58,635 nucleotides of DNA from positions 1-58,635 of IMG/VR virus record IMGVR_UViG_3300030380_002200; one strand, given 5' to 3'. The notes under the pieces were generated by a model that had not been told where the DNA came from, ran no database searches, and worked only from the letters and a program-made list of their open reading frames with translations. Numbering within the stretch: the first letter of the stretch is position 1; each line of letters starts with the position of its first letter. The position numbers and the translations under genes are program-made. This stretch comes from a virus (Duplodnaviria > Caudoviricetes). Shown piece after piece: positions 9,380-36,707 of the stretch.

Positions 9380-9380
9380 T

Positions 9381-20817: not shown

Positions 20818-20821
20818 CTAT

Positions 20822-20829
20822 CAAAGATA
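20822..20829 (-). promoter_or_regulatory. -7 promoter element (TATCTTTG on minus strand)
   Basis: CAAAGATA on plus; 4 nt before the GTG start at 20817. Confidence 0.6.
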
Positions 20830-20845
20830 CGAAACGCATTAGCGT

Positions 20846-22327
20846 TCATTCCCTGTTCAATTTCTTGAAGTGGTTTACGGTGAAGTCCCGCTTCTTGGTG
20901 ACGGCCTTGTAGATGTCCTTCTCAATGCCACCACGAGAGAACACCCAATACACATCGGACTCAAGCCTCTCCTTCGTAGTCATCCTATCTCGTGACTGCC
21001 AATAGCTTGTCGCAGAGAAGTCTATGTTGTAGTACACCAAGGCATCAGCCTCTCGTAAGGATATACCCTCACGCCCACTTACAATCTGAAGGGCTATGTT
21101 CTTGTCCGTGCCTGTGAACTTATCGAGGTCGGTAACGAGCGTGTCCTTGAAGACACGCTTGAGTGCCTCAAGTTCTGCCTTGAACTTGTAGAAGATACCA
21201 ATCTTCTTGCCCTCGAACTTCTCCTTGATGAAGGTAGCCTTGCTCAAGTCAAGCACCGTAGCCTTACCCGACTCGAACTTGATAGTTCCTGAGTATAGCT
21301 GATGGAGCTTCATCATGAGCTTGACGGGTGTGTCGGCCAAGATGACCTCGTCCTTACCCTCCACCACCAAGTCCTTCTTGAGCCTAGTGGCAAGGCTGTA
21401 TGTCATGTCTGACATCTCCACTTGCAGTACGTGCTCTCGTGTATCGACCTTGAACCCCGCCTCCTTTTGTGAGAAGTTGATGGTGAACGGTCTCATAGCT
21501 TCGAGGATGGTATCTAATCCCTTGGAGTAGTCGTTAATCATCAGCCCGTTTATCTTCTTCTGAGTGACCCGCGCATACTTGTCGCAGAATCGGTAGAAGT
21601 TTTTGAACTCAGCAAACGGATTGTTGGGAATGCCGTACACCTGATGATACATCTGACAGTAGGACTCAGGTGTCGGTGTCCCCGACAGCAGGATAACCTT
21701 TGGGCTATAACGCTTCACTATATCCCTCACATCCTTGGCCCTCTTGCTTGGCTTGGGGAACGCTCCGATGCTGTGTGCCTCGTCAAGGATAACGATGTCC
21801 CACTTCACGTCAGGAAGTTTATGCATCGACTCGTAGTTGATAACGAACAGGGAGTATGATGGGCATAGCTTGTTGCTGTCTGCAGTGATAGAAGAGATGG
21901 CTTTCTTCTTCGTTATGAACAAGACGTTGTCCACTTTCATCTTGTCGCAGATACCGAGACTTGTCAGCGTCTTACCTGTACGTACCTCCATAGCTAAGTA
22001 TAGGAAGCCCGTGTCCTCAAGGACACGGACTCCCTTTTCAATTATAGCTTCCTGATAGTCTCGGAACTCTATCTCTGATGATTTCTTCATCTGCTCTGCA
22101 TAGTATTCAAGGCTATTAGATATGCGCTCTCGGACAAGTGGGTCAACGTTGCGGTACTTATTAACCTTCACCTTGGTCGCGGCTCGGCCACGTCCTACGG
22201 TACGCTGAACCTTTGCATTGATGACTCGGTCTAGACGTTCAACGCTACGCAACATATCCTTATCGCTGTAGTAAGGCTTGCGTGAGAACACCTCCTTGTC
22301 ACCCCACATGAAGGTGTCAGCCTTCAT
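20846..22327 (-). CDS. Superfamily 2 (SNF2-like) helicase
   Basis: FRDYQ Q-motif, MEVRTGKT Walker A, LDEAH Walker B, LSGTP motif III, GREGISL, QSRDR motif VI. Confidence 0.85.
   Translation of the reverse strand: MKADTFMWGDKEVFSRKPYYSDKDMLRSVERLDRVINAKVQRTVGRGRAATKVKVNKYRNVDPLVRERISNSLEYYAEQMKKSSEIEFRDYQEAIIEKGVRVLEDTGFLYLAMEVRTGKTLTSLGICDKMKVDNVLFITKKKAISSITADSNKLCPSYSLFVINYESMHKLPDVKWDIVILDEAHSIGAFPKPSKRAKDVRDIVKRYSPKVILLSGTPTPESYCQMYHQVYGIPNNPFAEFKNFYRFCDKYARVTQKKINGLMINDYSKGLDTILEAMRPFTINFSQKEAGFKVDTREHVLQVEMSDMTYSLATRLKKDLVVEGKDEVILADTPVKLMMKLHQLYSGTIKFESGKATVLDLSKATFIKEKFEGKKIGIFYKFKAELEALKRVFKDTLVTDLDKFTGTDKNIALQIVSGREGISLREADALVYYNIDFSATSYWQSRDRMTTKERLESDVYWVFSRGGIEKDIYKAVTKKRDFTVNHFKKLNRE
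21141..21156. repeat. 16-bp palindrome copy 4 (inside the helicase CDS)
   Basis: GTGTCCTTGAAGACAC, encoding VFKDT on the minus strand. Confidence 0.95.
22011..22026. repeat. 16-bp palindrome copy 5 (inside the helicase CDS)
   Basis: GTGTCCTCAAGGACAC, encoding VLEDT on the minus strand. Confidence 0.95.
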
Positions 22328-22682
22328 TGTAGTGTGATTCTAAAATTATTTCCAAGTAGTGAATGGCCTTCTTGATGTCACTTGCTCCGCCTTTCTCCTT
22401 GTGACGAGTTACGTATTTGATTACGTTGCCTTCGAGATACCCCATATTGTTCTTCAGGATATATTCCACGGGTTCAACACCTCCTTTCTTGTAGTGCTTC
22501 TCTCCTTTGTTTTCAAGGGTCTTCATGTCCTTCTTTTTAGACTGTGGATAGTTGTTTACGATGTTCCATACTGTTCCGTATGTAAGGCCGAGGCGGGAAG
22601 CGATGTCGCGAATAGATACACCTCGCGCCTTAAGCCTGCGCACTGCGGTGTTGCGCTCCTCTTTCATTAGATTTTTTTTCAT
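22317..22682 (-). CDS. HTH fused to a DUF3310-like domain
   Basis: GVSIRDIASRLGLTYGTVWNIV (HTH); HYKKGGVEPVEYI...EGNVIKYVTR...DIKKAIHYLE (DUF3310 pattern). Confidence 0.75.
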   Translation of the reverse strand: MKKNLMKEERNTAVRRLKARGVSIRDIASRLGLTYGTVWNIVNNYPQSKKKDMKTLENKGEKHYKKGGVEPVEYILKNNMGYLEGNVIKYVTRHKEKGGASDIKKAIHYLEIILESHYNEG

Positions 22683-22687
22683 GATGA

Positions 22688-25102: not shown

Positions 25103-25105
25103 AGC

Positions 25106-25239
25106 TGTGCTGAATTTGTGCTGATTAAAGTATTCACTATCAATGAGATGTCGATAATGTCGATTTTTTTCTCCGAGTACAAGAGAAAATAAAAGTAGAT
25201 TGGAGAGTAGTAGTAGTTAATGACGAAACTATATCGGCA
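25106..25239. other. Putative replication origin A (iterons, AT-rich spacer, (AGT)n tract)
   Basis: TGCTGA at 25108 and 25119, TGTCGA at 25149 and 25158, inverted TCGGCA at 25234; directly upstream of the primase-helicase gene. Confidence 0.5.
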
Positions 25240-25250
25240 TTTTTTGGGGC

Positions 25251-25279
25251 AAAAAAAGGGGAGACCGAAGCCTCCCCTT
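25251..25279 (-). terminator. Rho-independent terminator
   Basis: Minus strand AAGGGGAGGC-TTCG-GTCTCCCC followed by a T run, after gene 25298..25597. Confidence 0.8.
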
Positions 25280-25297
25280 CCTACTCAACACAAATGG

Positions 25298-25597
25298 TTA
25301 GAAAGGCAAATCTTCTGCAGGGGACTCTACTTCCTGCGGTTTGCTTTTCGCCACAGTTTTCTTTGGGGTGTCGCCTTGTGGCTGAGGCTCCCATGTATCC
25401 AACTCGGTGTAGGGCTTGCCTGATTCCTTACCGATTTTCATTTCTACGTTGACCCAACCTTTCTTTTCGTACTTGGTCAGGAACTTGATGAACTCCTCCA
25501 CCTTAAAGGAGAGTTTTCCGATGACCCAATCAGGGTCGGTGTCTTTCTTCTTGAGGATGAGACCGTCAGGGTAGATAGCTTCTTTTTTATTAGACAT
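25298..25597 (-). CDS. Putative single-stranded DNA-binding protein
   Basis: Short beta-rich domain with a flexible tail ending EDLPF (SSB-like C-terminus); next to the exonuclease and annealase. Confidence 0.6.
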   Translation of the reverse strand: MSNKKEAIYPDGLILKKKDTDPDWVIGKLSFKVEEFIKFLTKYEKKGWVNVEMKIGKESGKPYTELDTWEPQPQGDTPKKTVAKSKPQEVESPAEDLPF

Positions 25598-25616
25598 GAT
25601 TTGAGTATTGATTAAA

Positions 25617-25624
25617 CAAATATA
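25617..25624 (-). promoter_or_regulatory. -7 promoter element (TATATTTG)
   Basis: CAAATATA on plus, upstream of the SSB-like gene. Confidence 0.55.
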
Positions 25625-25641
25625 CGAAACTTTCTACAGTT

Positions 25642-26373
25642 TCAAAGGATTTCGTGAATAAAATATGCGTCGAGACTTTCACTTGGGTTGTCCCCGAAGA
25701 ACTTACGGTACTGCTCGACGGCTTTGCGAACCTTAGCCTCGCCTCCTTCGATGAAGGTTGATGAGGTCTCGAACACACCGATGGTTCCTGTTCCCTTCTC
25801 AACTACATAGAACACGAGAGGTCGGCCAAACATGTTCGAGTAGATGTACGCTTGGCTGTCGTAGTTATACTTCTTTGCGCTCCAACGAAAGTCAGCAATG
25901 TTTGATGTGGTCTTCAGGTCGATGACCATCTCAGGGTGGATGATGTCTGCCTTACCCTTCCACATCTCACCTGCTATCTCCATGACGGCAGGGACTTCGT
26001 ACTCGCATTCGTCGTGACGGATGTCGTCGAACAAGTCCATGTTGCCGAGCATATTTCTGACACAATCTTGAATCTCGTCGCGCTCTTTCTCAAGCAGGGC
26101 GAACGGGAGTTCGTTCTCCAAGCAGTAGTCCTTGTATGCCTTGGTGCTTCGCGACCCTACAGGTACGAAGTCCCACACCTTTGCCTTCTCAGGTTCGAGG
26201 ATAAGCTGATGGAAGTACCTACCCTTTGCGAACGCAGGGTTGTCGGGTTGCTTCTTCTTGAAGTCCCGTGGGTTCTTCAACAGTGCACCTATGTCGGAGT
26301 TGGACAGGTACTGCTGTCCAAACTCCCCATAGTAATGCTCGTCGTCGCGTAGCTTTTCAATAGCTTCGCTCAT
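25642..26373 (-). CDS. PD-(D/E)XK exonuclease (RecE/DUF3799-like)
   Basis: LSNSDI, G..FH.LILEP, KGKADII, IDLKTT, YNYDSQAYIY motifs. Confidence 0.8.
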   Translation of the reverse strand: MSEAIEKLRDDEHYYGEFGQQYLSNSDIGALLKNPRDFKKKQPDNPAFAKGRYFHQLILEPEKAKVWDFVPVGSRSTKAYKDYCLENELPFALLEKERDEIQDCVRNMLGNMDLFDDIRHDECEYEVPAVMEIAGEMWKGKADIIHPEMVIDLKTTSNIADFRWSAKKYNYDSQAYIYSNMFGRPLVFYVVEKGTGTIGVFETSSTFIEGGEAKVRKAVEQYRKFFGDNPSESLDAYFIHEIL

Positions 26374-26996
26374 GCCTTTTCCATTTCAGCGGTCAATCCC
26401 TTCTTGACTGACGCAGTCACCTTGTACTTGCGCTCTGCCATAGACAGGATGTCTTCGATGGTCTTGTCCTTGTTCTCCTTGATAAAAGCTACAATCTTCT
26501 TGTAGTTCTCATCGTTCACCTTGAGTGTCTTTAAGGACACGGGTTCAGGCTTGGACTCAGGAAGGTCTTCACCTGCATAGATGTAGTGGCCGAGTCCAAA
26601 CATTGCAAGGTTCTTGGTCAGGCAACGCATGATGGTCTTGTTGATGTCGAACATCGTTGCCTTGTTGACCTGCTTCTCTCCGTATCGAGTAGAGAATGTA
26701 TACGGTGCATCCATCATGGCGTTGTTCGCTCCGTCCATCACAGGCAACCACATCTCAAGCGTCTCACCGTCGATGGTTACGTTGGTCATGGTCATGTAGC
26801 CAAGTGCGGGGTCGAAGAACCAAGGCTTGTCAGTTTGCGGGTCGCGCAACACCTCATAGGATGCATCAGGATATTGCTTCTTGACTTCGGCCCAAGCCCA
26901 AGCCCATGAGAGGTATTTAAGGTTGCTTTTCTTTTCAACCTTGTCATTGACGTTGATTGCGCTCAACGTTTCGAATACAGATTTTTTCTGTGCCAT
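26370..26996 (-). CDS. sak: Sak (Rad52-like, DUF1071) single-strand annealing protein
   Basis: YLSWAWAW, MWLPVMD, DINKTIMRCLTKNLAMFGLGHYIYAGEDLP. Confidence 0.85.
   Translation of the reverse strand: MAQKKSVFETLSAINVNDKVEKKSNLKYLSWAWAWAEVKKQYPDASYEVLRDPQTDKPWFFDPALGYMTMTNVTIDGETLEMWLPVMDGANNAMMDAPYTFSTRYGEKQVNKATMFDINKTIMRCLTKNLAMFGLGHYIYAGEDLPESKPEPVSLKTLKVNDENYKKIVAFIKENKDKTIEDILSMAERKYKVTASVKKGLTAEMEKA
26525..26540. repeat. 16-bp palindrome copy 6 (inside the sak CDS)
   Basis: GTGTCTTTAAGGACAC, encoding VSLKT on the minus strand. Confidence 0.9.
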
Positions 26997-26998
26997 TG

Positions 26999-27403
26999 TT
27001 ATTGAATTGATTTGAGTAAAAGATTCACTTTGTTGTATCGTGTAAGGACTCGGTCACGTTTGCCTTGAAGGGATTTGAGAGTCGCGTGGTTGTTGGTGCT
27101 GTTCACCTCCTTCCTGATTGACCTCTCGATTGACTCAAGTTTTATACGATTGTTAGACAAATATACGACATAGATGCCGTACTTCCAACCCTTGCTGTAA
27201 AAAATATGCTCCTCCGCAGGAGATAGTTTCACATAGTGGCTTCCGCCCTGCGTGGTGTTGAAGAACTCAACCTCACCCGTTGCGTTGTCACGAGTAATTT
27301 TTGTGCCGTAAGAGATACGTCCTTCGTATCCCTTGCCGTCAATGTTACTCGCATACTTATCGTCAAGTGCCTGTTCAAACACTTGGTCTGATGTGTAGGT
27401 CAT
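26999..27403 (-). CDS. Hypothetical protein
   Basis: Start reassigned to ATG 27403 (MTYTSDQ), ATGA-coupled to the upstream small ORF. Confidence 0.65.
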   Translation of the reverse strand: MTYTSDQVFEQALDDKYASNIDGKGYEGRISYGTKITRDNATGEVEFFNTTQGGSHYVKLSPAEEHIFYSKGWKYGIYVVYLSNNRIKLESIERSIRKEVNSTNNHATLKSLQGKRDRVLTRYNKVNLLLKSIQ

Positions 27404-27570
27404 AGCAGATGGTGTCCGTATCGTGAGTACAGCGCAAGAAGAAAGGTCAGGGCAATCCCCATGCCTACTGTGAGGGCTACGCCCCATCTAACTCCGTTGT
27501 TGTACTCTTGCTCAAGCATCTCTTTGACAAGATGGATTTGACCTTCAGTAAACTGTTCGCCGCGTATCAT
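27400..27570 (-). CDS. Small single-TM membrane protein (56 aa), not in the ORF track
   Basis: MIRGEQFTEGQIHLVKEMLEQEYNNGVRWGVALTVGMGIALTFLLALYSRYGHHLL*; ATGA overlaps at both ends. Confidence 0.7.
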   Translation of the reverse strand: MIRGEQFTEGQIHLVKEMLEQEYNNGVRWGVALTVGMGIALTFLLALYSRYGHHLL

Positions 27571-27857
27571 TTGTCGAGGCTTTTGATAACCTTTTTGTAG
27601 TCCCTGTCGGACTTGGCTCTCTCTGAAGCGACGCTAATTCCGTGCAAGATGGACGTGTGTCCGATGTCGTACCCGTTGCGCTTCATGAACTCTTGTATGT
27701 ACACCACACGCATGGGCCTTTTGGAACAGGCGTAGTACAACAACTGCCGAGCGTCTACAACGTCGCGCTTCTTGGACTTGACGAACAGGTCTTCAACCTT
27801 GAGGTTGAATAACTCTGCAATCTTTTCTGCATAGGTATCAAAGATTTGTTCCTTCAT
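27567..27857 (-). CDS. Stand-alone DnaA domain IV-like protein
   Basis: IAELFNLKVEDLFVKSKKRDVVDARQLLYY...GHTSILHG; start reassigned to ATG 27857. Confidence 0.75.
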   Translation of the reverse strand: MKEQIFDTYAEKIAELFNLKVEDLFVKSKKRDVVDARQLLYYACSKRPMRVVYIQEFMKRNGYDIGHTSILHGISVASERAKSDRDYKKVIKSLDK

Positions 27858-27886
27858 CGGGTTTTGGTTGTGGTAGGTTAAACTTT

Positions 27887-27935
27887 CCGCTGTATACGTC
27901 TGCGATATCCTGAAAGATTTCGTGTAGTACAACGG
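27887..27935 (-). other. Intergenic long imperfect RNA hairpin
   Basis: Minus strand CCGTTGTA/TACAGCGG outer stem, an internal loop, then CGA/TCG and ATCT/GGAT closing a TTCA loop. Confidence 0.45.
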
Positions 27936-27947
27936 TAGAACTGTGCT

Positions 27948-27963
27948 GTGTCCTTGAGGACAC
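27948..27963. repeat. 16-bp palindrome copy 7 (intergenic)
   Basis: GTGTCCTTGAGGACAC. Confidence 0.95.
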
Positions 27964-27985
27964 ACGGTCTCGATTGGTGGGCTTC

Positions 27986-28330
27986 TTATCTGCCATTTTC
28001 AAATATGAATTGTTCGACTACGTCGAGGGTTTTACTTCGCTTGCTGTATCCGTTGGCTTCTCCAACAAAGAAGCCTGAGTCAAGACCTTCAATGATTTGT
28101 CCTGTCATTGCATACCACACTACGTCGGTGCAGTTACTACGCAGGTCAAGGGTCGCGTCACCTGTAGGGTTGGCTGACTTCTCAAAGTCCTGCCGCGACA
28201 TCATAAGTCCTGTCTCTTGGAAGTCCTTGAAGGTGGGTGCGTCGTTACCCATAAGCTGTTGCAAGCGTTGTATAAGCGCACGATTGTGTGGCTGATGCAT
28301 CTTGAGGTAGAGGAGGCTTGTGTCAATCAT
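27986..28330 (-). CDS. Hypothetical early protein
   Basis: 114 aa, ATGA-coupled. Confidence 0.65.
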   Translation of the reverse strand: MIDTSLLYLKMHQPHNRALIQRLQQLMGNDAPTFKDFQETGLMMSRQDFEKSANPTGDATLDLRSNCTDVVWYAMTGQIIEGLDSGFFVGEANGYSKRSKTLDVVEQFIFENGR

Positions 28331-28566
28331 TTCAACTCGGATTTATATGCAAACACCACATCACCAACGAGCGGTCGCCCGCTCATCTCTGATGCCTTGG
28401 CGTTGAAGTCCATGCTACGCAGGATTCCTTCCTCGTTTACGATGAACACCCTGTCTTCCTTGTAGACGTACTGAACGTATCCGTCTACCAACTGCTGTTG
28501 CTGTTGCAACGTCTCGACGGCCACGTCATTGACTATGCTTCCGTCTGTCTTGATTAGCTGTGCCAT
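28327..28566 (-). CDS. DUF3846-like protein
   Basis: LQQQQQLVDGYVQ...IVNEEG...FNAKAS...LVGDVV pattern. Confidence 0.7.
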   Translation of the reverse strand: MAQLIKTDGSIVNDVAVETLQQQQQLVDGYVQYVYKEDRVFIVNEEGILRSMDFNAKASEMSGRPLVGDVVFAYKSELK

Positions 28567-28586
28567 AGAATTAGATTTTAATTAGT

Positions 28587-28618
28587 CAAATATAATACAA
28601 GAATTATACGCATCCAAA
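28587..28618 (-). promoter_or_regulatory. Bacteroidota sigma70 promoter, TTTG-N20-TATATTTG
   Basis: CAAATATA at 28587 and CAAA at 28615 on plus; full -33/-7 consensus. Confidence 0.8.
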
Positions 28619-28629
28619 TATATTCGACA

Positions 28630-28872
28630 CTATTTCAGTTCGTCAAAGGGAATCTCATTCACCCTGACGTAGACGTACCCATCCTTGACGATGGTGTTCT
28701 CTTGCGTAAGGAATCTCTCTGCTCTCTTCTGCCGCGACAACCACGCCTTGAGTTCAGTTACAACCTCCATCATGCCGAGACCTTCATGGCGAGTCCGTGT
28801 ATCGGTCTTCGCCATGAGGTCTTTTGCTTCGGCTCTCTTTTCATTCAACAGTAGGAGGAGTCCTTTCATCAC
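28630..28872 (-). CDS. Hypothetical early protein
   Basis: 80 aa, overlap-coupled. Confidence 0.55.
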   Translation of the reverse strand: MMKGLLLLLNEKRAEAKDLMAKTDTRTRHEGLGMMEVVTELKAWLSRQKRAERFLTQENTIVKDGYVYVRVNEIPFDELK

Positions 28873-29105
28873 TCTACTATTTGGTTATGAATCTCAATAG
28901 TAGAATGCTCTGCTTCGTCCCGCCATAGGCGGGCGGTCTGAATACATCGCGTGTGTCTGACCTCGTCAGGTCGTTCGCCACCATGCATGAGGGTAACCTT
29001 GAACTTCTCTGCCTGTGCCATCTCTTTGCGCAAGCGGAAGATGGTGTCGGACTGCTCGTCCAATCTTTCAACCATCCGTGCTATTGTGTTTGTAACGTCG
29101 CTCAT
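28869..29105 (-). CDS. Hypothetical early protein
   Basis: 78 aa, preceded by an AAAACTCAATTCAA leader. Confidence 0.65.
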   Translation of the reverse strand: MSDVTNTIARMVERLDEQSDTIFRLRKEMAQAEKFKVTLMHGGERPDEVRHTRCIQTARLWRDEAEHSTIEIHNQIVE

Positions 29106-29121
29106 TTGAATTGAGTTTTGT

Positions 29122-29137
29122 GTGTCCTCAAGGACAC
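29122..29137. repeat. 16-bp palindrome copy 8 (intergenic)
   Basis: GTGTCCTCAAGGACAC. Confidence 0.95.
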
Positions 29138-29143
29138 GGGTTA

Positions 29144-29216
29144 GCGGTGTGGGGGGAATCGAACCCCCGAGGATAACGGCTCCGTAGATAACCGACCCCT
29201 CCTTCCAAGCACACCT
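29144..29216 (-). ncRNA. tRNA-like element (intact acceptor stem and T arm, degenerate D and anticodon arms)
   Basis: 73 nt; GGTGTG/CACACC stem, GGGGG-TTCGATT-CCCCC T arm; A14, G15, G18, G19, C48 and T54-T55-C56-G57-A58 fall at canonical positions. Confidence 0.65.
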
Positions 29217-29245
29217 GTGGTCTACATCCTTTACTTGTTTACCAC

Positions 29246-29506
29246 TTACTTGTCGTTCGCTTCCTCGTACAGGCGGTCAGCCCGTGACATGAAGTCCTCC
29301 TCCTCATTGGTGATGGTGAGGTCGGAGTCCTCCAACTCAGCGTACACGCCACCGAGATTCTCGATGGCTTTCTGCACGTCAGCTACTGCTTCCTGCTCAA
29401 GTGTGCTTTGGTCGGCACACCCATGGTCGGTGTACGTCACTCGCACACTGACCCATACCTCACCCGTGAAGGTGGGAATTACATAGTCGTCGTTTGGATT
29501 ACTCAT
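29246..29506 (-). CDS. Small acidic early protein
   Basis: Start reassigned to ATG 29506 (MSNPNDD); strongly D/E-rich. Confidence 0.6.
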   Translation of the reverse strand: MSNPNDDYVIPTFTGEVWVSVRVTYTDHGCADQSTLEQEAVADVQKAIENLGGVYAELEDSDLTITNEEEDFMSRADRLYEEANDK

Positions 29507-30605
29507 GGTCGTTGAATTTGAATACATCCTCGATGGTGTCGCTGATGTCGATTAGGTCTTTCTCTGCGTACCATGTATCGCACTCGCCGCAATGGTAGTT
29601 GTTGAACCCGTCGTACTCCACGTCAGCGAAGCACGTTGGGCAGACATGGCCGTCGTCGGGGAAATCGCAGTCAGCCAACTCGAAGCAGTCGGTGACTTCG
29701 TACTCGCGCTCGAACTCGATGGTCTGTTGGAACGGCTCCGCACGTTGCGGCAACACACGTTCGTATGACTTGTGATGCTCCTTGCCCTCGATGTTGACGT
29801 CGTTGAAGTACACCCATGCCGTGACAATCCTACGGCCCTTGTCCAACACGACAGGCACTTGCTCTCGGACGTACCAACGTGGGTGGCCCTCAAGCCCGTC
29901 GAGGTCAGCGAAGGTCTCGTCGTCAACGCGGAACACATCCACCTCAACGTGATGCCCGATACCCTGTTTGGGGGATAGGAACGGGAGGCCGTCGATGATG
30001 AGCGGGTATTTCTCTGCTGTGACTGCGCTACCCATGTAGATGGACTGACCCTGCAAGTGTCTCGCGTAGTTCCCATGCCCGCGCTTCAACGTGCCGTACA
30101 CAGCGACCACGTTGTCGCGAAAGATATTGGTCTTGCTGTACCACACACCATCCTTGTACGTGAACAGGTCGCGATTGTAAATCTGAAACGACTTGTGCTT
30201 GGTGTTGATGGACACGAAGCGAACGGCCTTGAACTTGGACAGGAACTTCTTCCATGACTTGCGTGGCATATCACCGAGTTTGTTGGCGATGTCCTGCGTA
30301 TCGGTCATGTCCTTGTTGCCGTATCCGTTGACCGTGCCGTTCATCATGAACAGTTCGTCGGCGTTCTTGCCACATACGAACGGGTGGGTGTTCTCCTTGC
30401 AGACCTTGCCGATGGTGGCGTACCTGAAGTGAGCAATGAACGGACGCTCGGTGTCGAGGATAGCGTACTCGCTTGACTTGAAGTAGTCCGTCTTGAAGGT
30501 GTCGAGCCACGTCACACCGAGGCCGTGAGGGTTGACGATGGAGGCGTTCTCCAACGTCTGCATAGCAATCTTGTTCTGCTTCTGCTTGATGATGATTACA
30601 CACAT
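29499..30605 (-). CDS. Class II (Ntn) glutamine amidotransferase fused to a gamma-glutamylcyclotransferase (AIG2-like) domain and a Zn ribbon
   Basis: Cys2 (MCVII), NPHGLG, IAHFRYATIG, NTHPF, MNG; VAVYGTLKRG...LDGLEG..Y.R (GGCT); CPTC...CGEC. Confidence 0.85.
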   Translation of the reverse strand: MCVIIIKQKQNKIAMQTLENASIVNPHGLGVTWLDTFKTDYFKSSEYAILDTERPFIAHFRYATIGKVCKENTHPFVCGKNADELFMMNGTVNGYGNKDMTDTQDIANKLGDMPRKSWKKFLSKFKAVRFVSINTKHKSFQIYNRDLFTYKDGVWYSKTNIFRDNVVAVYGTLKRGHGNYARHLQGQSIYMGSAVTAEKYPLIIDGLPFLSPKQGIGHHVEVDVFRVDDETFADLDGLEGHPRWYVREQVPVVLDKGRRIVTAWVYFNDVNIEGKEHHKSYERVLPQRAEPFQQTIEFEREYEVTDCFELADCDFPDDGHVCPTCFADVEYDGFNNYHCGECDTWYAEKDLIDISDTIEDVFKFNDHE

Positions 30606-30627
30606 TTGAGTTGAGATTAGAAGGGGC

Positions 30628-30643
30628 GTGTCCTTGAAGACAC
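30628..30643. repeat. 16-bp palindrome copy 9 (intergenic, stem extended by GGGG/CCCC flanks)
   Basis: GTGTCCTTGAAGACAC, between the promoter at 30670 and the GATase start. Confidence 0.95.
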
Positions 30644-30669
30644 ACCCCCTCGGTTAGACAAGTATTGGA

Positions 30670-30701
30670 CAAAGATAAAACAAAAGTTCTACTCTTCCAA
30701 A
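30670..30701 (-). promoter_or_regulatory. Bacteroidota sigma70 promoter, TTTG-N20-TATCTTTG
   Basis: CAAAGATA at 30670 and CAAA at 30698. Confidence 0.8.
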
Positions 30702-30898
30702 TCTTTTTTTGCTTGCTCGATTACATCTTCGAGGTAGAGCTTGTCGTCTACGATGCGTTCGCAGTATCGTATCAGGTTGGCGAGACCCTGAACTTCGTAT
30801 TGACTCAGGTCGGTGGTCTCTCCGTTGGCGATTGCTTCGACACAATCGTCAAGGTCGCGGGCCGTGTTTTCGAAACGGCAGTATGACATATTAGGCAT
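30689..30898 (-). CDS. Hypothetical early protein
   Basis: 69 aa beginning MPNMSYCRFENTARDLDDC. Confidence 0.7.
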   Translation of the reverse strand: MPNMSYCRFENTARDLDDCVEAIANGETTDLSQYEVQGLANLIRYCERIVDDKLYLEDVIEQAKKDLEE

Positions 30899-30901
30899 GA
30901 C

Positions 30902-31096
30902 TTATGAATTAGAGTTGAGTTCCATTTCCTTCCATTGGTCGAGACTGCGCCACCCTGTGCGGGAGAACAGGATGCATTCCAATGAGTAGAGGTTTGTTCC
31001 GTTGATGCTACACACGAGGGCAATCTCCTCCTCGTTGCATACTCCGTACTCGACCATCAGGTCGTAGAGTTCGATGTACTTCTTGTCGTTGCTCAT
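30902..31096 (-). CDS. Hypothetical early protein
   Basis: 64 aa. Confidence 0.65.
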   Translation of the reverse strand: MSNDKKYIELYDLMVEYGVCNEEEIALVCSINGTNLYSLECILFSRTGWRSLDQWKEMELNSNS

Positions 31097-31104
31097 GATT
31101 GGTT

Positions 31105-31236
31105 CTACTTTATTAGTTTTTCTAATTGTTCTAAAACGATGTCCAACATCTCTCCGTCAGAGATATAGTTCTCTCCTTCTTCTGAGTGCTTTGGTTTTTT
31201 GGCGTACTCAATCAACCCTTTGATTTGTTCTTTCAT
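31105..31236 (-). CDS. Hypothetical early protein (43 aa)
   Basis: Start reassigned to ATG 31236 (MKEQIK), ATGA-coupled. Confidence 0.55.
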   Translation of the reverse strand: MKEQIKGLIEYAKKPKHSEEGENYISDGEMLDIVLEQLEKLIK

Positions 31237-31445
31237 GACTTCTCTTCTTTGATGTAGCCCAACAACAGGCCAAGTGAAACGATGGTGATGCTTCCTCCCA
31301 TCAGGGAGACGATGATGGCCGCGATGATGCTGTGACCTTGGTATGCATTGCAGTTGGCAATGACTGACCACACGAGCGCGATGCCCATGCAGAGGGTGCA
31401 ACACGCCATGAACATGGACGTTGCGATGTACTTAAACTTTTTCAT
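31233..31445 (-). CDS. Small two-TM membrane protein
   Basis: 70 aa with two hydrophobic segments; AAACTCAACTCAA leader. Confidence 0.65.
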   Translation of the reverse strand: MKKFKYIATSMFMACCTLCMGIALVWSVIANCNAYQGHSIIAAIIVSLMGGSITIVSLGLLLGYIKEEKS

Positions 31446-31460
31446 TTGAGTTGAGTTTGT

Positions 31461-31476
31461 GTGTCCTTGAGGACAC
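31461..31476. repeat. 16-bp palindrome copy 10 (intergenic)
   Basis: GTGTCCTTGAGGACAC. Confidence 0.95.
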
Positions 31477-31484
31477 AGGGTTAA

Positions 31485-31757
31485 TTACTTGAGCATTGCG
31501 ATGACCTTGACCTCGACACATTCAGACATGAGGCGAGTGAACTCGCACACGCAGATGTAGCGTTCGCTTGACGTACATTCATACTCGATGCTGACGAGGT
31601 TGTCTCCGTACTCCTCCTGTGCCGCGACGTAGTAGTCGTGGTGTTCCTGTTCAATGATGCTCTCCTCGGAGGCAGAGAGGTGAGACGTGTCCCCGTTGAA
31701 GATGGTGGGGAGGAACTGCTGACCGATGGTCAGGTCTAAAAAATGATGTGCTTTCAT
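31485..31757 (-). CDS. Hypothetical early protein
   Basis: Start reassigned to ATG 31757 (MKAHH), downstream of a promoter. Confidence 0.6.
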   Translation of the reverse strand: MKAHHFLDLTIGQQFLPTIFNGDTSHLSASEESIIEQEHHDYYVAAQEEYGDNLVSIEYECTSSERYICVCEFTRLMSECVEVKVIAMLK

Positions 31758-31772
31758 TGTGTTTGATTTAGA

Positions 31773-31804
31773 CAAAGATAAGACAAGAATTGTACACTTC
31801 CAAA
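31773..31804 (-). promoter_or_regulatory. Bacteroidota sigma70 promoter, TTTG-N20-TATCTTTG
   Basis: CAAAGATA at 31773 and CAAA at 31801. Confidence 0.8.
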
Positions 31805-31805
31805 T

Positions 31806-31973
31806 TTATTTTGGGGTGATGAAAATTTCATCGAACGTCCAACCTTGGTTGCGCTCCATGTATGCAACGTAGTTGTCGATGTGGCTCTGCCCGCTCCACA
31901 ATTTCGTGACATGGCGCACACTACCAAGTCCCGTTTGGAACTTGATGGTGGCGTGGATGCGTGACTGACTCAT
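31806..31973 (-). CDS. Hypothetical early protein (55 aa)
   Basis: Start reassigned to ATG 31973 (MSQSRIH), ATGA-coupled. Confidence 0.55.
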   Translation of the reverse strand: MSQSRIHATIKFQTGLGSVRHVTKLWSGQSHIDNYVAYMERNQGWTFDEIFITPK

Positions 31974-32149
31974 GGCGTTTGGTTGAGGATGTTTTCGAGT
32001 TGGCATTCTTCCTGCTCAAGCAGACGAATCTCTGCACGGATGTCAAGGATGCGTTGCTTTGTATCCTCCAACAGCTTGGCCTTCGTGGAGTGCATTGCTT
32101 CCCATGCAACCTGTAACGGGGACTTCAGCGTGTTCTGTGGATTTGACAT
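31970..32149 (-). CDS. Small coiled-coil early protein (59 aa)
   Basis: Start reassigned to ATG 32149 (MSNPQNT); the longer track ORF runs through the ribozyme. Confidence 0.6.
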   Translation of the reverse strand: MSNPQNTLKSPLQVAWEAMHSTKAKLLEDTKQRILDIRAEIRLLEQEECQLENILNQTP

Positions 32150-32190
32150 GATGTTGTTGGCGGTAGGTGCGCCACCCATTTGTGTGAGTT

Positions 32191-32241
32191 TCCGTTTCGA
32201 CCTTTCGGTCTCATCAGCATCGGTACACACCGATGGACGGA
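32191..32241 (-). ncRNA. Hammerhead ribozyme, type III
   Basis: Minus strand UCCGUC^CAUCGGU-GUGU-ACCGAUG CUGAUGA GACC-GAAA-GGUC GAA ACGGA: complete catalytic core and three perfect stems; predicted cleavage between 32236 and 32235. Confidence 0.93.
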
Positions 32242-32247
32242 GGGAGC

Positions 32248-32263
32248 GTGTCCTTGAGGACAC
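32248..32263. repeat. 16-bp palindrome copy 11 (intergenic, stem extended by GGGAG/CTCCC)
   Basis: GTGTCCTTGAGGACAC, 6 nt 5' of the hammerhead on the minus strand. Confidence 0.95.
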
Positions 32264-32277
32264 GACTCCCGTTCGCC

Positions 32278-33192
32278 TCACCACCCGTGGCGGGTCAGGT
32301 CTCTGTCCCACCTGTCGGTCATGTTGCGGTGTGGGTCAATCCACGCGATGGTCTCGCGGTTGATTTGCCCTGTGCGGAGCATCTTGTTGAAGGCTTCCGA
32401 CAGCGTCAGAATCTCGGTGACCTTCACCTCGTCGTGGCCGTACATGGAACTCACGATGGGCGTGACGGCCTTGAGGAACGTCTTGAACGATGCGTTCGGG
32501 CGGTTGACAGCGAAGTCGAGCATCATGTAACACAACTCGTAGCGACGCATCATCTGCTTCACACCTGTGATGCGCGATGGCAAGCGGAACTCAACTCGGT
32601 CGCCCTTGCGGAGGCAGACTTGGTAGCGTCCTGCGTTGGTCTCCACGTCCATGAATGGGTTGCTTCGGCAGTAGCCGTTGCCCAACCGACGACGGAACAG
32701 GGAGAGCATGACCCCGCTGAACTTCTTCAAGCGGTTCATCAACTCCTCACCTTCCATGCCGTCCACAGCCAAGGTGATGTGCCCACCACAGCGGTGGTCG
32801 CTTGGGCTGTGGCTGTCCTCGATGATGCGCTTTGCCTCGTACATCATGTTGAAGACCTTGTTGCGCCATTCGCCCTTGGGGAGCAGGGGCAAGATGTGGG
32901 TGATGGCTTCGTAGCCACATGAGCCGTCACGCTCGAACCCTGCGAACAGAGCGTACTCGGTGACTGCGCCACGGCTGAAGCGAGACTTCTCAACCTCGAA
33001 GCCAATGGTGAACCTGCTGTTCACGTTGCCGTTCTCGAACTCGATGACGTTGCGCTTCTGCGCAGACTTCAGCGTTGCGATGTCTCCCTTCTTGGCTCCC
33101 ATGCCAAGGTGCTTGGGAGATGGAGAGCCGTGGTAGCGGACAACGCGGTTGCGGTTGTAGTCGCCTGTGGTGGTGTATTGGATAGTGTCCAT
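32278..33192 (-). CDS. Putative amidoligase (COOH-NH2 ligase, glutamine-synthetase-like fold)
   Basis: FTIGFEVE, ERDGSC, YEAIT, CGGHIT, RY, VEFRL motifs; start reassigned to ATG 33192. Confidence 0.8.
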   Translation of the reverse strand: MDTIQYTTTGDYNRNRVVRYHGSPSPKHLGMGAKKGDIATLKSAQKRNVIEFENGNVNSRFTIGFEVEKSRFSRGAVTEYALFAGFERDGSCGYEAITHILPLLPKGEWRNKVFNMMYEAKRIIEDSHSPSDHRCGGHITLAVDGMEGEELMNRLKKFSGVMLSLFRRRLGNGYCRSNPFMDVETNAGRYQVCLRKGDRVEFRLPSRITGVKQMMRRYELCYMMLDFAVNRPNASFKTFLKAVTPIVSSMYGHDEVKVTEILTLSEAFNKMLRTGQINRETIAWIDPHRNMTDRWDRDLTRHGW

Positions 33193-33209
33193 GGTGTTGA
33201 GTTTTAGGT

Positions 33210-33225
33210 GTGTCCTTGAAGACAC
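33210..33225. repeat. 16-bp palindrome copy 12 (intergenic)
   Basis: GTGTCCTTGAAGACAC, between the stop at 33229 and the amidoligase start. Confidence 0.95.
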
Positions 33226-33228
33226 GGG

Positions 33229-33897
33229 TTAGAGTTGGTGGTTAGAGTCAGCCGCACCAATCAGGTTCTGCATGGTTGCAATGGCCGAGAGAATCTCCGC
33301 TCGGCTGTTGGTGGTGTGCTGTCCGCCATTGGCATCGAGCCTCCATGAGACGTTGGATGCTCCGTCAACCTTCATGGTGAAGGTTGAGATGGTATCAACC
33401 TGCTCGGTGCGCGTCTCCACGTCTGTCTCCTCGACAGCCTGTTCGATGGCTTCAGTCACCTGCTCCTCGGTTGCGTCTTCAGGCAACTCGGACAGGTCAA
33501 TGTCACGACCGAACTTGTCGAGGTTGGCGATGGTACGCATCGCTTGGTCTCCTGCTTCGTCGCACTTGCGGTTGAACGCGGCAATGACTCGTGGGTCAAG
33601 TGAGCCACAGCGACGAACCTTGTGGAAGTACGACTTGCCCCAACCGAAGACCTTCTTGGAGAAATCCTCTGTTGTCCATGACAAGCCTTGCTCATCGAAG
33701 GCCAACTTGCCTTCGTCGCTGTTGAACCATGCGTATGCGTTCACAACGTGAACCGAGAGAGCCATGCTGTGCTCGAACTTGCGCTTCTGTGCGTTGTCTA
33801 CGTTGCGCTGTCCGCGACGGATGTCGGTGAGGTTCAACGCTGTCTTCACTTGTGGGATGTTGAGGAAATCCCGTTCCATTTGATTGAGAATGCTCAT
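33229..33897 (-). CDS. First gene of the early arm; hypothetical, with a possible HTH-like segment and an acidic linker
   Basis: 222 aa; TTEDFSKKVFGWGKSYFHKVRRCG is helix-turn-helix-like; E/D-rich middle region. Confidence 0.65.
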   Translation of the reverse strand: MSILNQMERDFLNIPQVKTALNLTDIRRGQRNVDNAQKRKFEHSMALSVHVVNAYAWFNSDEGKLAFDEQGLSWTTEDFSKKVFGWGKSYFHKVRRCGSLDPRVIAAFNRKCDEAGDQAMRTIANLDKFGRDIDLSELPEDATEEQVTEAIEQAVEETDVETRTEQVDTISTFTMKVDGASNVSWRLDANGGQHTTNSRAEILSAIATMQNLIGAADSNHQL

Positions 33898-33899: not shown

Positions 33900-34428
33900 T
33901 ACTGAGTTTTTGAGGTTTAATTTGCTGATTTTCAGCGAGTTAGAGTCATTTTGGCGGGCATTTGGCTACCGCCGATGGTGCAATATACGACTATTTCTTG
34001 TCTAATTCGACACAGCAGGCACACTTTCTTCGTTTTCCCTGCCATTCGTTTGGGGTTGGGGAGGACGGGACAGGGGCTGTGCCTTCCCTCTCTCCATGTG
34101 AATGGGGGAAGGTCTGAACGGGGGAAGGTCAGCGTGTCTTCAAGGACACAGGCACAGGTTCGGTTTGGTCACAGGAGCGGAGCGGAGCAGGACGGGAGGA
34201 TGGGCGCGGACGGACGGCAGACCGACAGCGCACGACAGCGGGACGGGAGCGGGAGCAGGGACGGCAGGCCCACCACAGCAGGACGGCCACAGCAAAACGG
34301 CAAAAAATCAGGACAGCACCGAGCGGGACAGACCCCCCCTATGCGCGGCAGGTCGGTTTCGGACAGCGGGCGGCGGCGCGTACGGCCTACATAACCCAAA
34401 CACTGAAAACACCTACTGTAAAAAATTG
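33900..34428. other. Non-coding divergence region between the arms (candidate genome terminus/packaging region)
   Basis: GC-rich, T-poor plus strand with about 20 ACRG(C/G) repeats, a G-tract cluster at 34052..34076 and a GGGGGAAGGTC direct repeat (34104, 34120). Confidence 0.55.
34134..34149. repeat. 16-bp palindrome copy 13
   Basis: GTGTCTTCAAGGACAC. Confidence 0.95.
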
Positions 34429-34801: not shown

Positions 34802-34802
34802 G

Positions 34803-34876
34803 TACTCCCTATAGGATTCGAACCTATGACCCACAGCTTAGAAGGCTGTTGCTCTATCCAACTGAGCTAAGGGAGC
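34803..34876 (-). tRNA. tRNA-Arg (anticodon TCT)
   Basis: GCTCCCTTAGCTCAGTTGGATAGAGCA ACAGC-CTTCTAA-GCTGT GGGTC ATAGG-TTCGAAT-CCTAT AGGGAGTA; full cloverleaf, CCA not encoded. Confidence 0.95.
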
Positions 34877-34877: not shown

Positions 34878-35044
34878 TGCTGATTGATGTCGTTTCTCTG
34901 TCGTTCTCTGTCGATATTCTCTTACTAACTTATTGATTTATAGTAGGATGTCGATAATGCCGAAAAATGAAGCGATTTTTCTTAGGGCAGAATAATAGAT
35001 ACTACTACTACTACTACTACTAATAGGGGGAAAGATTTTCGGCA
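34878..35044. other. Putative replication origin B (same architecture as origin A)
   Basis: TGYYGW at 34878, 34888, 34899 and 34909; AT-rich spacer; GATGTCGATAATGCCGA at 34947; (TAC)7 at 35000..35022; inverted TCGGCA at 35039. Confidence 0.5.
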
Positions 35045-35108: not shown

Positions 35109-36707
35109 ATGCAAAATTCAGGATTCACTCCCAAAAAATTGGAGTTCAATGACGAAGCACGAGAAAAGCTCGTCGAAGGAATCAATCAAATCGCGAACGC
35201 TGTAAGCAGCACCCTCGGCCCTGCGGGTCAAACAGTCATCATCGAATCGCCTGAACACACGCACGGCATCACCGTAACGAAGGACGGTGTTACTGTAGCT
35301 AAGGCCATCGACCTTCTCGACCCCACTGAGAACCTTGCGGTACGTATCATGAAGGAAGCGGCTGACCGTACTGCTACATCAGCGGGTGACGGGACGACCA
35401 CATCTATCGTGTTGGCTCGCGCCCTTGTCGAGGCGGGGTACAAGCACATACCTGACGGTGAGCGCACTGACGTGTTACGCGACTTGCGGGTAGAAACTGA
35501 GAAGGTGATTGCTTCCTTGAAGAGGCAGGCTCGCGCTGTGACGAAGGGGAGGCTCAAGGACGTAGCTACCATCTCCTCAAACAACGACAGCAAGATTGGC
35601 GACATCATCGCCAAGGTGTATAAGGACGTAGGAAAGAACGGCATCGTAACTGTTGACCGCTCTATGACGAGCGAGACATACTACGAGACAACCGACGGCA
35701 TCAAGGTTGACCGTGGGTTTAGCTCACCGCTGTTCATCAACGACCACAAGAAAGATGAGTGTGTCCTTGAGGACACACATATCCTTGTATCCGATGCTGA
35801 GATTAGCAACGTCTTGCAGATTGAGAATGTACTCAAGCCTATCATCGCTGAGAACAAGAAGCTACTGATTATCGCACCGTGCTCTGCGAACGTGGTGAAT
35901 ACCATCGCGGCCAACGTCATGAAGCGCGATATGAAGATTTGTATTATCCAACCACCGAACTTTGGATACAAGCAGCACGAGCTGATGCAGGACATCGCTT
36001 TGAGTGTGGGTGCTACATACTTCTCTGAGAAGACAGGCGACGACCTGAGCCTCATGCAGTATACTGACCTCGGTCGCGCAGAGCGCGTCATCGTGGGTCG
36101 TGACTCGTCGATTATCCTGAAGGATAAGGACAGCGGCAACCAAGAGTTGATTGACGAGCGCGTTATGCAGCTCAACGCTTCGCTTGCCATCACTCAGCGC
36201 AAGGCTGACAAAGACTTCATCCTTGAGCGCATCGCATCGCTGACAGGTGGCATCGGTGTTATATACGCAGGCGGAAATACTGACCTTGAGCAGAAGGAGC
36301 TATACGACCGTATCGACGATGCGGTGTGTGCGGTACGGTCTGCGCTTGAGGAGGGCATCCTACCCGGCGGTGGTGTAGCATTGTACAACGAGGTGATGAA
36401 GCGATACCACAACCCTCAGACTGTGGCTGAACAAATTTTCGCGGACGCACTTCGTGCGCCATTTGAGCAAATTGTCGAGAACGCAGGTCACTACAACGTA
36501 GACATTTGGGCAGGCAATGCTGACGAGTCACATAGCTATGGCTTCAACGTCAAGACTGAAAAGTATGGTGACATGTATGAGATGGGTGTGATTGACCCAC
36601 TCAAGGTTACGCGGTCTGCTCTTGAGAACGCAGTAAGTGTTGCCACAACTATTCTGTCTACCAATGCCATCATTACTATGGCACGGACATACGAGCAGAA
36701 GTCGTGA
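35109..36707 (+). CDS. groEL: Phage chaperonin GroEL
   Basis: TLGP, VTKDGVTVAK, AGDGTTT, ERIASLTGGIGVI, DDAVCAVRSALEEGILPGGG, GVIDPLKVTRSAL. Confidence 0.97.
   Translation: MQNSGFTPKKLEFNDEAREKLVEGINQIANAVSSTLGPAGQTVIIESPEHTHGITVTKDGVTVAKAIDLLDPTENLAVRIMKEAADRTATSAGDGTTTSIVLARALVEAGYKHIPDGERTDVLRDLRVETEKVIASLKRQARAVTKGRLKDVATISSNNDSKIGDIIAKVYKDVGKNGIVTVDRSMTSETYYETTDGIKVDRGFSSPLFINDHKKDECVLEDTHILVSDAEISNVLQIENVLKPIIAENKKLLIIAPCSANVVNTIAANVMKRDMKICIIQPPNFGYKQHELMQDIALSVGATYFSEKTGDDLSLMQYTDLGRAERVIVGRDSSIILKDKDSGNQELIDERVMQLNASLAITQRKADKDFILERIASLTGGIGVIYAGGNTDLEQKELYDRIDDAVCAVRSALEEGILPGGGVALYNEVMKRYHNPQTVAEQIFADALRAPFEQIVENAGHYNVDIWAGNADESHSYGFNVKTEKYGDMYEMGVIDPLKVTRSALENAVSVATTILSTNAIITMARTYEQKS
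35761..35776. repeat. 16-bp palindrome copy 14 (inside groEL)
   Basis: GTGTCCTTGAGGACAC, encoding CVLEDT. Confidence 0.95.

Follow-up and report, generated by a model that had tools for sequence, protein, structure and literature searches.

Intercistronic RNA structures, such as the early RNase III sites of phage T7, REP elements and mitochondrial tRNA punctuation, set processed ends and stabilise the upstream mRNA. Stoperators are asymmetric DNA sites that function in lysogeny through their reader, a monomeric immunity repressor, and site and reader change together. Here, we analyzed the virus record IMGVR_UViG_3300030380_002200 (Duplodnaviria; Caudoviricetes), a near-complete record of 58,635 bases with a completeness of 98% as estimated by the collection, which we refer to in full as the window. 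It carries a 16-nucleotide (nt) palindrome, GTGTCYTYRARGACAC, between the early genes on its minus strand and throughout the rest of the genome. We propose with moderate confidence that this palindrome is a two-layer punctuation element, that is, an RNA hairpin whose sequence is also recognized by a specific reader. The first layer, in which intergenic hairpins in the sense RNA would work together with hammerhead ribozymes and tRNA-like elements, rests on comparative evidence. We infer the second layer, a genome-specific reader, from the uniformity of the 16-mer within each genome.

In prophages, several type III hammerheads within one operon have been described as flanking single genes or short gene blocks, and processing of the long transcript has been inferred (Perreault et al. 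2011, PMC3088659). The ribozymes reported here similarly lie between early genes of one operon. However, a hairpin, usually the family-wide palindrome, precedes each ribozyme here at 0-15 nt, and no partner hairpin is mentioned in the available part of that report. Furthermore, unlike the arrangement in that part of the report, our palindrome also occurs alone, beside tRNA-like elements, in terminator-like hairpins and within genes. The PeSL elements of T4-type phages are described as combining a strong promoter with a terminator stem-loop and as marking insertion/deletion (indel) breakpoints and mini-circles (PMC2839356, PMC4122927). As described, they resemble the present elements in being short repeated stem-loop motifs between small early genes of a variable region; in contrast, a promoter-like site precedes only one of our five early intergenic copies, and breakpoints avoid our modules.

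The genomes of Cluster A mycobacteriophages are described as carrying many copies of the stoperator, a short, mostly intergenic site that is read by one phage protein (PMC9283540, PMC6550527). Our palindrome is likewise one site in many copies, with a variant common to all copies of a genome, and the reader here is a candidate only. It differs from stoperators in being palindromic and in having RNA-level structure, and no integrase was found in this phage. KorB of RK2 is described as a dimeric ParB-family protein that binds dispersed palindromic operators and silences genes (PMC11790492). Our palindromes are dispersed as well, and the first early protein of the window, P0001, gave a weak fold match to the DNA-binding domain of KorB (Z 5.5, within noise). 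However, no ParB domain was found in it by Pfam, and a partition function is not expected in this phage. In contrast to the RNase III sites of T7, REP elements and tRNA punctuation, our stems fall far short of the length that RNase III requires, each genome has its own fixed hairpin sequence, and cutting would be left to ribozymes and, probably, to the enzymes that process tRNAs.

The system is a new variation on known kinds, namely multi-hammerhead phage transcripts, stabilising hairpins and dispersed operators, and our searches on phage hammerheads in connection with Cellulophaga or with tRNA-like elements and early mRNA processing gave no description of it. The organisation of early expression in phages of Flavobacteriia-type hosts is little known, and our analysis provides a testable map of early regions with as many as four ribozymes, candidate cut sites at tRNA-like elements and an invariant hairpin word for which a dedicated reader is probable. 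Were the reader confirmed, the palindrome would be a compact case of one sequence serving both the DNA and the RNA level, and it would offer orthogonal site/protein pairs (GTGTC, GTCTC, GTACG) as well as insulators made of a ribozyme and a hairpin with which operons could be engineered in Bacteroidota.

Abundance and layout of the palindrome

The palindrome occurs at 16 sites in the 58.6-kb genome, compared with 0.35 expected; none of 100 shuffles reached this number, and a reversed-pattern control gave no sites. The site has 16-bp two-fold symmetry, with invariant 5-nt arms, near-invariant T7 and A10 and a pyrimidine-purine centre. The original prediction had described a boundary module of the early genes. 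Such a module is real, and its palindrome exceeds chance by far, but the element is wider than predicted: it is spread over the genome beyond the early junctions (further sites start at 5277, 12108, 18148, 21141, 22011, 26525, 34134, 35761, 45309 and 52410), and, in a crude map of open reading frames (ORFs), six of the 16 copies lie inside ORFs, namely those of a 2869-amino-acid protein, a helicase (two copies), Sak, a 52-codon ORF and GroEL.

Four minus-strand junctions (33190-33231, 31443-31487, 30603-30657 and 29103-29144) share the predicted layout of a stop codon or TAACC, the palindrome, a G-poor leader and an ATG. When compared with one 15-mer, the leaders at 29103, 31443 and 30603 showed 0, 0 and 1 mismatches, respectively; the looser leader is that of the copy at 33210 and not, as had been predicted, that of 30628. 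The hairpin is located right after the stop codon or in the 5' leader, 15-22 nt ahead of the next start codon. The minus-strand copy at 33210-33225 lies between the first early gene (stop codon 33229-33231) and a gene for a 304-amino-acid protein (ATG 33190-33192), and is predicted to form a 6-bp RNA hairpin of -7.1 kcal/mol. On the same strand, the copy at 31461-31476 separates genes for proteins of 90 amino acids (stop codon 31485) and 70 amino acids (ATG 31445), and the copy at 29122-29137 lies 7 nt 3' of a tRNA-like element and is followed by a 16-nt leader and the ATG at 29105. In the close relative L005, the palindrome equivalent to 31461 is found directly behind a promoter-like site because the 90-amino-acid gene is absent there.

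We also scanned the window for TTTG-N17-23-TAnnTTTG, which we take to be the Bacteroidota promoter consensus. There were five matches at four places (31773-31804, 30670-30701, 28587-28618 and 25617-25646), compared with 1.5 expected, and 3 of 100 shuffles gave five or more. All of these promoter-like matches are on the minus strand, ahead of early or replication genes. Among the five early intergenic copies of the palindrome, that at 30628 is preceded by such a site, and those at 33210, 32248, 31461 and 29122 are not.

Conservation and variants among relatives

The relatives comprised 155 sequences, with fetched loci of 16-20 kb each. A Sak-anchored scan of viral contigs yielded 80 loci, and the first set examined contained 84 sequences; a second scan, anchored on the first early protein, yielded 73 loci. 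At least three family palindromes were present in 33 of the 84 sequences of the first set, and at least two in 71 of the 73 loci from the second scan. MW202828.1 (L001) has 14 copies with a different inner sequence, GTGTCGTTAACGACAC, all in the early and replication region, and its intergenic copies share the stop-palindrome-leader-ATG layout. The arms vary as well: the form GTCTC...GAGAC was found in L033, L039, L080 and L155, and GTACGGTCAACCGTAC in L036, and the GTACG/CGTAC form is also symmetric. Thus, a change in one arm is matched in the other and the symmetry is kept. Positions 7 and 10 are nearly always T and A across the family, and all copies of a genome share one variant, including those inside genes. 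The same 16-mer is kept across genomes in which Sak identity has fallen to about 55%, and palindrome-free relatives of L033 have no 16-mer at a junction with flanks that are 80-85% identical.

Two side observations concern these variants. At 5605-5639 of L039, palindromes of the GTGTC and GTCTC types lie 3 nt apart in one leader, and this is the only place with both types. The palindrome-free loci L030, L032 and L035 carry an A-rich leader word 10-12 times ahead of early genes, which suggests that this word marks a different type of early region with its own initiation signal.

If the palindromes were ordinary intrinsic terminators or attenuators, they could grade expression along the early operon. 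A long stem followed by a U run does occur at the copy at 52410-52425, which forms the apex of a terminator-like hairpin (52397-52446, plus strand; -33.4 kcal/mol, z -9.3) after the capsid-protein gene, and also at L008:8820 and L009:7741. However, the stems of the early modules are 6-7 bp with just -6 to -11 kcal/mol in RNA folds and are followed by A/C-rich, G-poor leaders without a U run, and within the window only the copy at 52410 qualifies as a terminator. The identity of the sequence across copies and across genomes as distant as those above would also be unexpected for plain terminators. We regard this explanation as very improbable.

A hammerhead ribozyme and its partner hairpin

The hammerhead that had been predicted beside the palindrome at 32248 was well supported. 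This type III ribozyme occupies 32191-32241 on the minus strand, with a predicted cut after C32236 (GUC triplet) and the next ATG at 32179, and matches the Rfam family Hammerhead_3 (RF00008) with 32.5 bits (E 4.4e-4). Directly 5' of it, and in the same arrangement in relatives, the palindrome at 32248-32263 is lengthened into a hairpin, GGGAG...CUCCC, at 32242-32270 (minus strand). Hairpin and ribozyme together fold with -42.8 kcal/mol (z -4.8). In an alignment of 38 distinct sequences, consisting of the window and 37 relatives, the core is invariant, with GUC, CUGAUGA and GAAA in register, and the three stems fit the alignment, with compensatory changes in 13 of their 16 pairs. The close relative L005 keeps the ribozyme, with a loop base alone differing.

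Hammerhead candidates in the relatives were collected with a simple custom finder. The first 84 sequences gave 46 candidates, all on the sense strand, and all 155 sequences gave 101 distinct sense-strand candidates and one antisense candidate. As an independent check, Rfam gave 10 Hammerhead_3 hits in the loci of three of the first 84 sequences, two of which reach the gathering threshold. At least one hammerhead is present in 52 of the 155 sequences, with a maximum of four. In 67 of the 101 sense-strand candidates, the palindrome ends 0-15 nt upstream of stem III, and palindromes in this position are often extended by G/C flanks. Twelve hammerheads of the first set have no nearby palindrome; eight of these have an unrelated GC-rich hairpin in its place, three have a palindrome 16-28 nt away and one is a doubtful call. 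Given that unrelated hairpins can substitute at hammerheads, the ribozyme context appears to need a hairpin, for which the family palindrome is the usual choice. A second unrelated hairpin was seen 3' of the hammerhead, before the next leader, at L028:4519, L049:4715, L050:1645, L070:6375 and others, so that some cut sites are flanked by hairpins on both sides.

Covariation and strand signals of intergenic copies

One copy of the palindrome, at 30628-30643, forms the upper part of a two-tier hairpin with a G/C lower stem (30620-30651, minus strand; -25.9 kcal/mol, z -4.8). It is located in the leader of a gene that we call GATase/GGCT (ATG 30605; glutamine amidotransferase and gamma-glutamyl cyclotransferase), downstream of the promoter-like site at 30670-30701. 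We aligned 21 orthologous sites ahead of this gene (30603-30657 in the window). Each site has a lower stem of 4 bp and, above a small internal loop, an upper stem; six loci have a different hairpin as the upper stem, and the others have the palindrome. Compensatory changes were found in 8 of the 10 pairs. Paired cells amounted to 98.6%, compared with 85% in shuffles (none of 500 reached the observed value) and 34-54% when the partner was slid. Only three cells were unpaired, and 21 cells were G.U or U.G on the sense strand, which would be mismatches on the other strand. This covariation, together with the sense-strand wobble pairs, indicates that the intergenic copies are RNA hairpins.

The centre of the palindrome gave a second strand signal. 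Among 370 de-duplicated sites, the centre read in the sense direction was TCAA rather than TTGA in 51 versus 3 cases beside hammerheads, and in 61 versus 30 cases at other intergenic sites.

tRNA-like elements and proposed routes of mRNA cleavage

A tRNA-like element with a 6-bp acceptor stem, a central hairpin and a T arm lies at 29145-29216 on the minus strand, beside the palindrome at 29122. It is non-canonical: neither ARAGORN nor Rfam called it as a tRNA (cloverleaf, RF00005), and there was just an 18-nt T-arm match to the transfer-messenger RNA (tmRNA) model. L005 and L006 differ from the window on both sides of one acceptor pair and two T-stem pairs (two distinct sequences only), and these two-sided changes support the predicted element. 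In 13 loci, a tRNA-like element has a palindrome on one side or the other, at a distance of 1-14 nt.

A recurrent tRNA-like element was seen in L045, L046, L049, L050, L052, L071 and L078, where it starts 4 nt after the palindrome. Its acceptor stem (7 bp) is conserved, its start resembles a D arm and its T arm is normal, with an insert of 20-60 nt in place of the anticodon arm; in L046, L049 and L052, the Sak gene starts about 1.4 kb upstream of it. ARAGORN made no tRNA call in the six of these loci that were scanned (L045 was not scanned), and Rfam made no call at E 0.01 in L049 and L050. At 523-697 of MW202828.1, two unusual tRNA-model hits are adjacent, one with a 46-nt insert in the anticodon region and the other a 61-nt form without most of the anticodon arm.

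A long hairpin had also been claimed 3' of the palindrome at 27948-27963 (minus strand). This copy encodes VSSRT inside a conserved 52-codon ORF (27838-27996), and the differences of this ORF from L005 are amino-acid replacements that leave the frame intact. The longer fold at 27884-27935 lies inside the ORF and has a z of only -2.2, and we dropped this claim. Cleavage by RNase III, which needs about two helical turns of duplex, was rejected given the stems of 6-7 bp and the coding nature of the hairpin at 27948. Therefore, of the proposal that the early mRNA is cut by several routes and protected by the hairpin, the RNase III route did not stand. Its core is supported by the palindromes beside 67 of 101 hammerheads and beside tRNA-like elements in 13 loci, by the replacement hairpins at 8 of 12 hammerheads and by the covariation of the GATase/GGCT module.

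In-gene copies and a candidate reader

Five further copies in the window lie inside larger genes. On the minus strand, one is in a variable linker of the Sak gene (26525-26540), where the palindrome is limited to the window clade, L021 and MW202828 and is not a conserved Sak site. Two others are in the SNF2-type helicase gene, near codon 100 (22011-22026) and near codon 391 (21141-21156); at the latter, substitutions in the window clade turned the conserved QVFGDE into RVFKDT. On the plus strand, a copy in the GroEL gene (35761-35776) is common to L009, L046 and L066, and another (12108-12123) encodes part of an acidic stretch of the 2869-amino-acid ORF. The counterparts of the in-gene copies in relatives are non-palindromic and can be aligned to them gap-free, which indicates that the copies arose by point substitution and excludes a mobile unit inserted into the genes. 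In L080, the helicase copy has the GTCTC form of its own genome, with the amino acids changed. Because the exact 16-mer is uniform within a genome, even in copies made by substitution inside genes, a sequence-specific reader encoded by the phage is likely. Structure by itself also leaves unexplained that the 16-mer persists among genomes with diverged Sak proteins and that it is missing from the junction in the palindrome-free relatives of L033.

The candidate that we favour is the product of the first early gene, P0001 (222 amino acids; 33229-33897, minus strand), on the basis of its co-occurrence with the palindrome, a residue near a putative recognition helix and a dimer model. P0001 is the gene family that best tracks the palindrome, being present in 19 of 27 palindrome-bearing loci and in none of 18 palindrome-free loci. 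In 81 of 86 rows, the position preceding its putative recognition helix is occupied by Q. The five genomes with variant palindromes all have S or N there, whereas Q is retained in members that are just as divergent and carry the common palindrome; in a quick tree (with long-branch warnings), L033 stood apart from the other variant genomes.

The AlphaFold model of P0001 had a pLDDT of 87. Foldseek found no match to the PDB at E 1e-3. In VIA-align, the best-scoring KorB structure was 1r71_A (Z 5.5, root-mean-square deviation (rmsd) 3.4, 97 aligned residues), followed by KorB 8qa8_A (Z 4.9, rmsd 4.3, 91 aligned) and Spo0J 1vz0_A (Z 4.8, rmsd 3.4, 102 aligned); all matches were below the value of Z 8 given in the guidance of the tool. 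A two-copy model gave a symmetric dimer with a score of 0.74, compared with 0.00 for the best of three controls, and a pLDDT of 84, and the runs agreed in at least 94% of contacts. In calibration, the mark for this score was reached by 20 of 30 solved homodimers and by 1 of 23 monomers. The modelling supports a P0001 homodimer. Possibly, the reader is this dimeric, putative helix-turn-helix protein, acting on either DNA or RNA.

We also considered two small helix-turn-helix proteins with a DnaA C-domain (Pfam), at 19769-20290 and at 27567-27965. We rejected the second (mapped as the ORF 27567-27857) as the reader, given that its family is present in 27 loci with palindromes and in 16 loci without them.

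Proposed mechanism and opposing evidence

We propose the following for the two-layer punctuation element. The intergenic copies would be transcribed inside early operons that have host-type promoter-like sites, and the sense RNA would form the 6-7-bp hairpin, extended where needed by a covarying lower stem. This hairpin would be coupled to a cutter, either a type III hammerhead immediately 3' of it (cut after C32236) or a tRNA-like element, which RNase P/Z would be expected to cut. The cleaved upstream RNA would then end a few bases beyond the hairpin, and polycistronic pieces would begin or end at hairpins. Such hairpin ends should shield the mRNA pieces from exonucleases, and neighbouring genes would thereby obtain different mRNA lifetimes. 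A longer stem and a U run would turn the same apex into a terminator-like hairpin, as at 52410. In the second layer, the P0001 homodimer may bind the site, either in hairpin form or as an operator in duplex DNA, and in this way set the timing of early expression or turn it off.

A bolder version is a double code. Here, the site would be the DNA operator of a KorB/ParB-like P0001 homodimer that times or silences the early operon, and also the RNA hairpin cap for hammerheads and tRNA-like elements; site and protein would co-evolve as a lineage-private word, written even into helicase and GroEL codons. We consider this version fairly unlikely.

Several observations weigh against the two-layer explanation. 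The score of the window hammerhead is below the Rfam gathering score of 48.5. MW202828, L009, L008 and L012 have many palindromes and no hammerhead, and no other ribozyme family was found near their palindromes at E 0.1 (L009, L008 and L012) or E 0.01 (MW202828). Coupling to ribozymes is therefore lineage-specific, occurring in 52 of the 155 sequences. Deep in-gene copies show no bias in the orientation of the centre (13 versus 16) and no stem extension; thus, an RNA role fails to explain them. At the inner pair 6/11, there is no preference for sense-strand wobble (4 U.G versus 3 C.A in the window, 5 versus 8 in intergenic clusters). As for P0001, relatives with and without palindromes exchange the early region as a whole, so that common ancestry confounds the link of this protein with the palindrome. 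Its fold matches to KorB and Spo0J (Z 4.8-5.5) are inside the noise stated for the tool, and Pfam at E 0.01 found neither a DNA-binding family nor a ParB domain in it.

Part of this evidence bears on another explanation, in which the palindrome is purely a duplex-DNA operator, comparable to stoperators or the KorB operators of RK2, and a dimeric early protein on 14-16 dispersed sites blocks or silences transcription, with the RNA hairpins as a by-product. The two-fold symmetry of the 16-bp site with its invariant 5-nt arms and near-invariant T7/A10, the concerted variation of copies within a genome, including those in genes, and the lack of selection for pairing at 6/11 all agree with such an operator. 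So do the predicted symmetric dimer of the putative helix-turn-helix protein P0001 (0.74 versus 0.00), its weak fold matches to KorB and Spo0J, the position of some copies just downstream of promoter-like sites, and the palindrome-rich genomes without hammerheads. However, an operator alone leaves unexplained the close spacing to hammerheads (0-8 nt) and the substitution by unrelated hairpins. It also does not account for the covarying lower stems, the G.U pairs that variant upper stems form in the sense strand, the strand bias seen at the centre in the sense direction or the terminator-like hairpin built on the same apex. We judge a pure DNA operator to be unlikely.

Recombination and mobility

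The original prediction also held that the modules are recombination boundaries, at which the neighbouring Sak annealase and exonuclease shuffle early gene cassettes in the manner of PeSL elements. Sak (PF06378) and a PDDEXK exonuclease are indeed coded at 25642-26996, and the leaders of three junctions are near-identical. Gene content between the modules is variable and not fixed, as shuffling would have it: five events, indels or replacements, distinguish the window from L005, which lacks three small genes of the window, has one gene of its own and has one gene replaced. Only one of these breakpoints falls at a palindrome, the deletion ending exactly at 31476. However, none of 48 clean indels in palindrome-bearing loci was flanked at its two ends by palindromes within 40 nt; 7 had one at one end and 41 had one at neither. 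Upstream of Sak, 3 of 48 breakpoints were near a palindrome, compared with 113 of 520 gene junctions (22%), which is a depletion (p 0.008); the events are non-independent and the alignment ends imprecise. In addition, a 16-nt repeat is short for homologous exchange, and the in-gene copies were made by point substitution and not by insertion. Repeat-driven shuffling is thus contradicted by the breakpoints of the relatives, and we consider it highly improbable.

Dispersed, mostly extragenic palindromes also recall REP-like mobile elements with a dedicated transposase, or hairpin promoters for an N4-like virion RNA polymerase, for which the giant 2869-amino-acid ORF of no assigned function among the structural genes would be the candidate. 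However, no transposase (HUH/Y1) or recombinase family was found among 63 window proteins by Pfam or 55 by PHROGs, and the origin of the in-gene copies by substitution also speaks against a REP-like element. The giant ORF had no match in Pfam, PHROGs or PDB sequences, and the early region is already served by host-type promoter-like sites. For both ideas, it is also difficult that unrelated hairpins can stand in for the palindrome upstream of hammerheads. We find them the most doubtful of the explanations considered.

Genome organisation and other features

In the crude ORF map, the window consists of a plus-strand structural block (52-18145), a minus-strand block of replication and early genes (18239-33897), and a second plus-strand block (34102-58227) with GroEL, GroES, terminase, portal and capsid genes as identified by PHROGs. 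The large terminase of the window shares 77% identity with that of the uncultured podovirus MW202828.1 and about 48% with terminases of Flavobacterium and Cellulophaga phages.

The remaining copies of the palindrome lie outside the early junctions. The late junction at 5277-5292 (plus strand) is laid out like the early ones, with TAA, 2 nt, the palindrome, 15 nt and the ATG at 5308. The copy at 18148-18163 (no strand assigned) is in the convergent junction, 2 nt past the last plus-strand structural gene, and that at 45309-45324 (plus strand) is followed 85 nt downstream by the start of the large terminase gene. The copy at 34134-34149 (no strand assigned) is in a largely non-coding stretch between a tRNA-Arg gene and the first early gene. 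This stretch (34050-34400) is G/C-rich, strand-skewed and non-coding, and contains short direct repeats, including two copies of a 16-nt unit at 34099-34130 and AGCRGGACGG units at 34186, 34237 and 34277. It could be an origin or a regulatory region.

Among the early proteins, that encoded at 29499-30605 (minus strand) has a weak class-II glutamine amidotransferase match joined to a gamma-glutamyl cyclotransferase domain (Pfam). The 304-amino-acid protein (32278-33192, minus strand) had no family match, and we presume it to be amidoligase-like, as a candidate label. Both genes belong to the palindrome-bearing type of early region. The 2869-amino-acid ORF (9381-17990, plus strand) lies among the structural genes, and its counterpart in MW202828.1 has about 3859 amino acids. 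The chaperonin genes at 35109-36707 and 44282-44848 (plus strand) encode GroEL (PHROGs E 1e-141) and a GroES-like co-chaperonin, respectively, and a run of TAG repeats is found near 35000-35020. The tRNA-Arg gene (anticodon TCT; 72 bits) at 34802-34876 is canonical and shares the minus strand with the early operon, upstream of which it is located; this tRNA-Arg is also found at the same place in L009 and L066.

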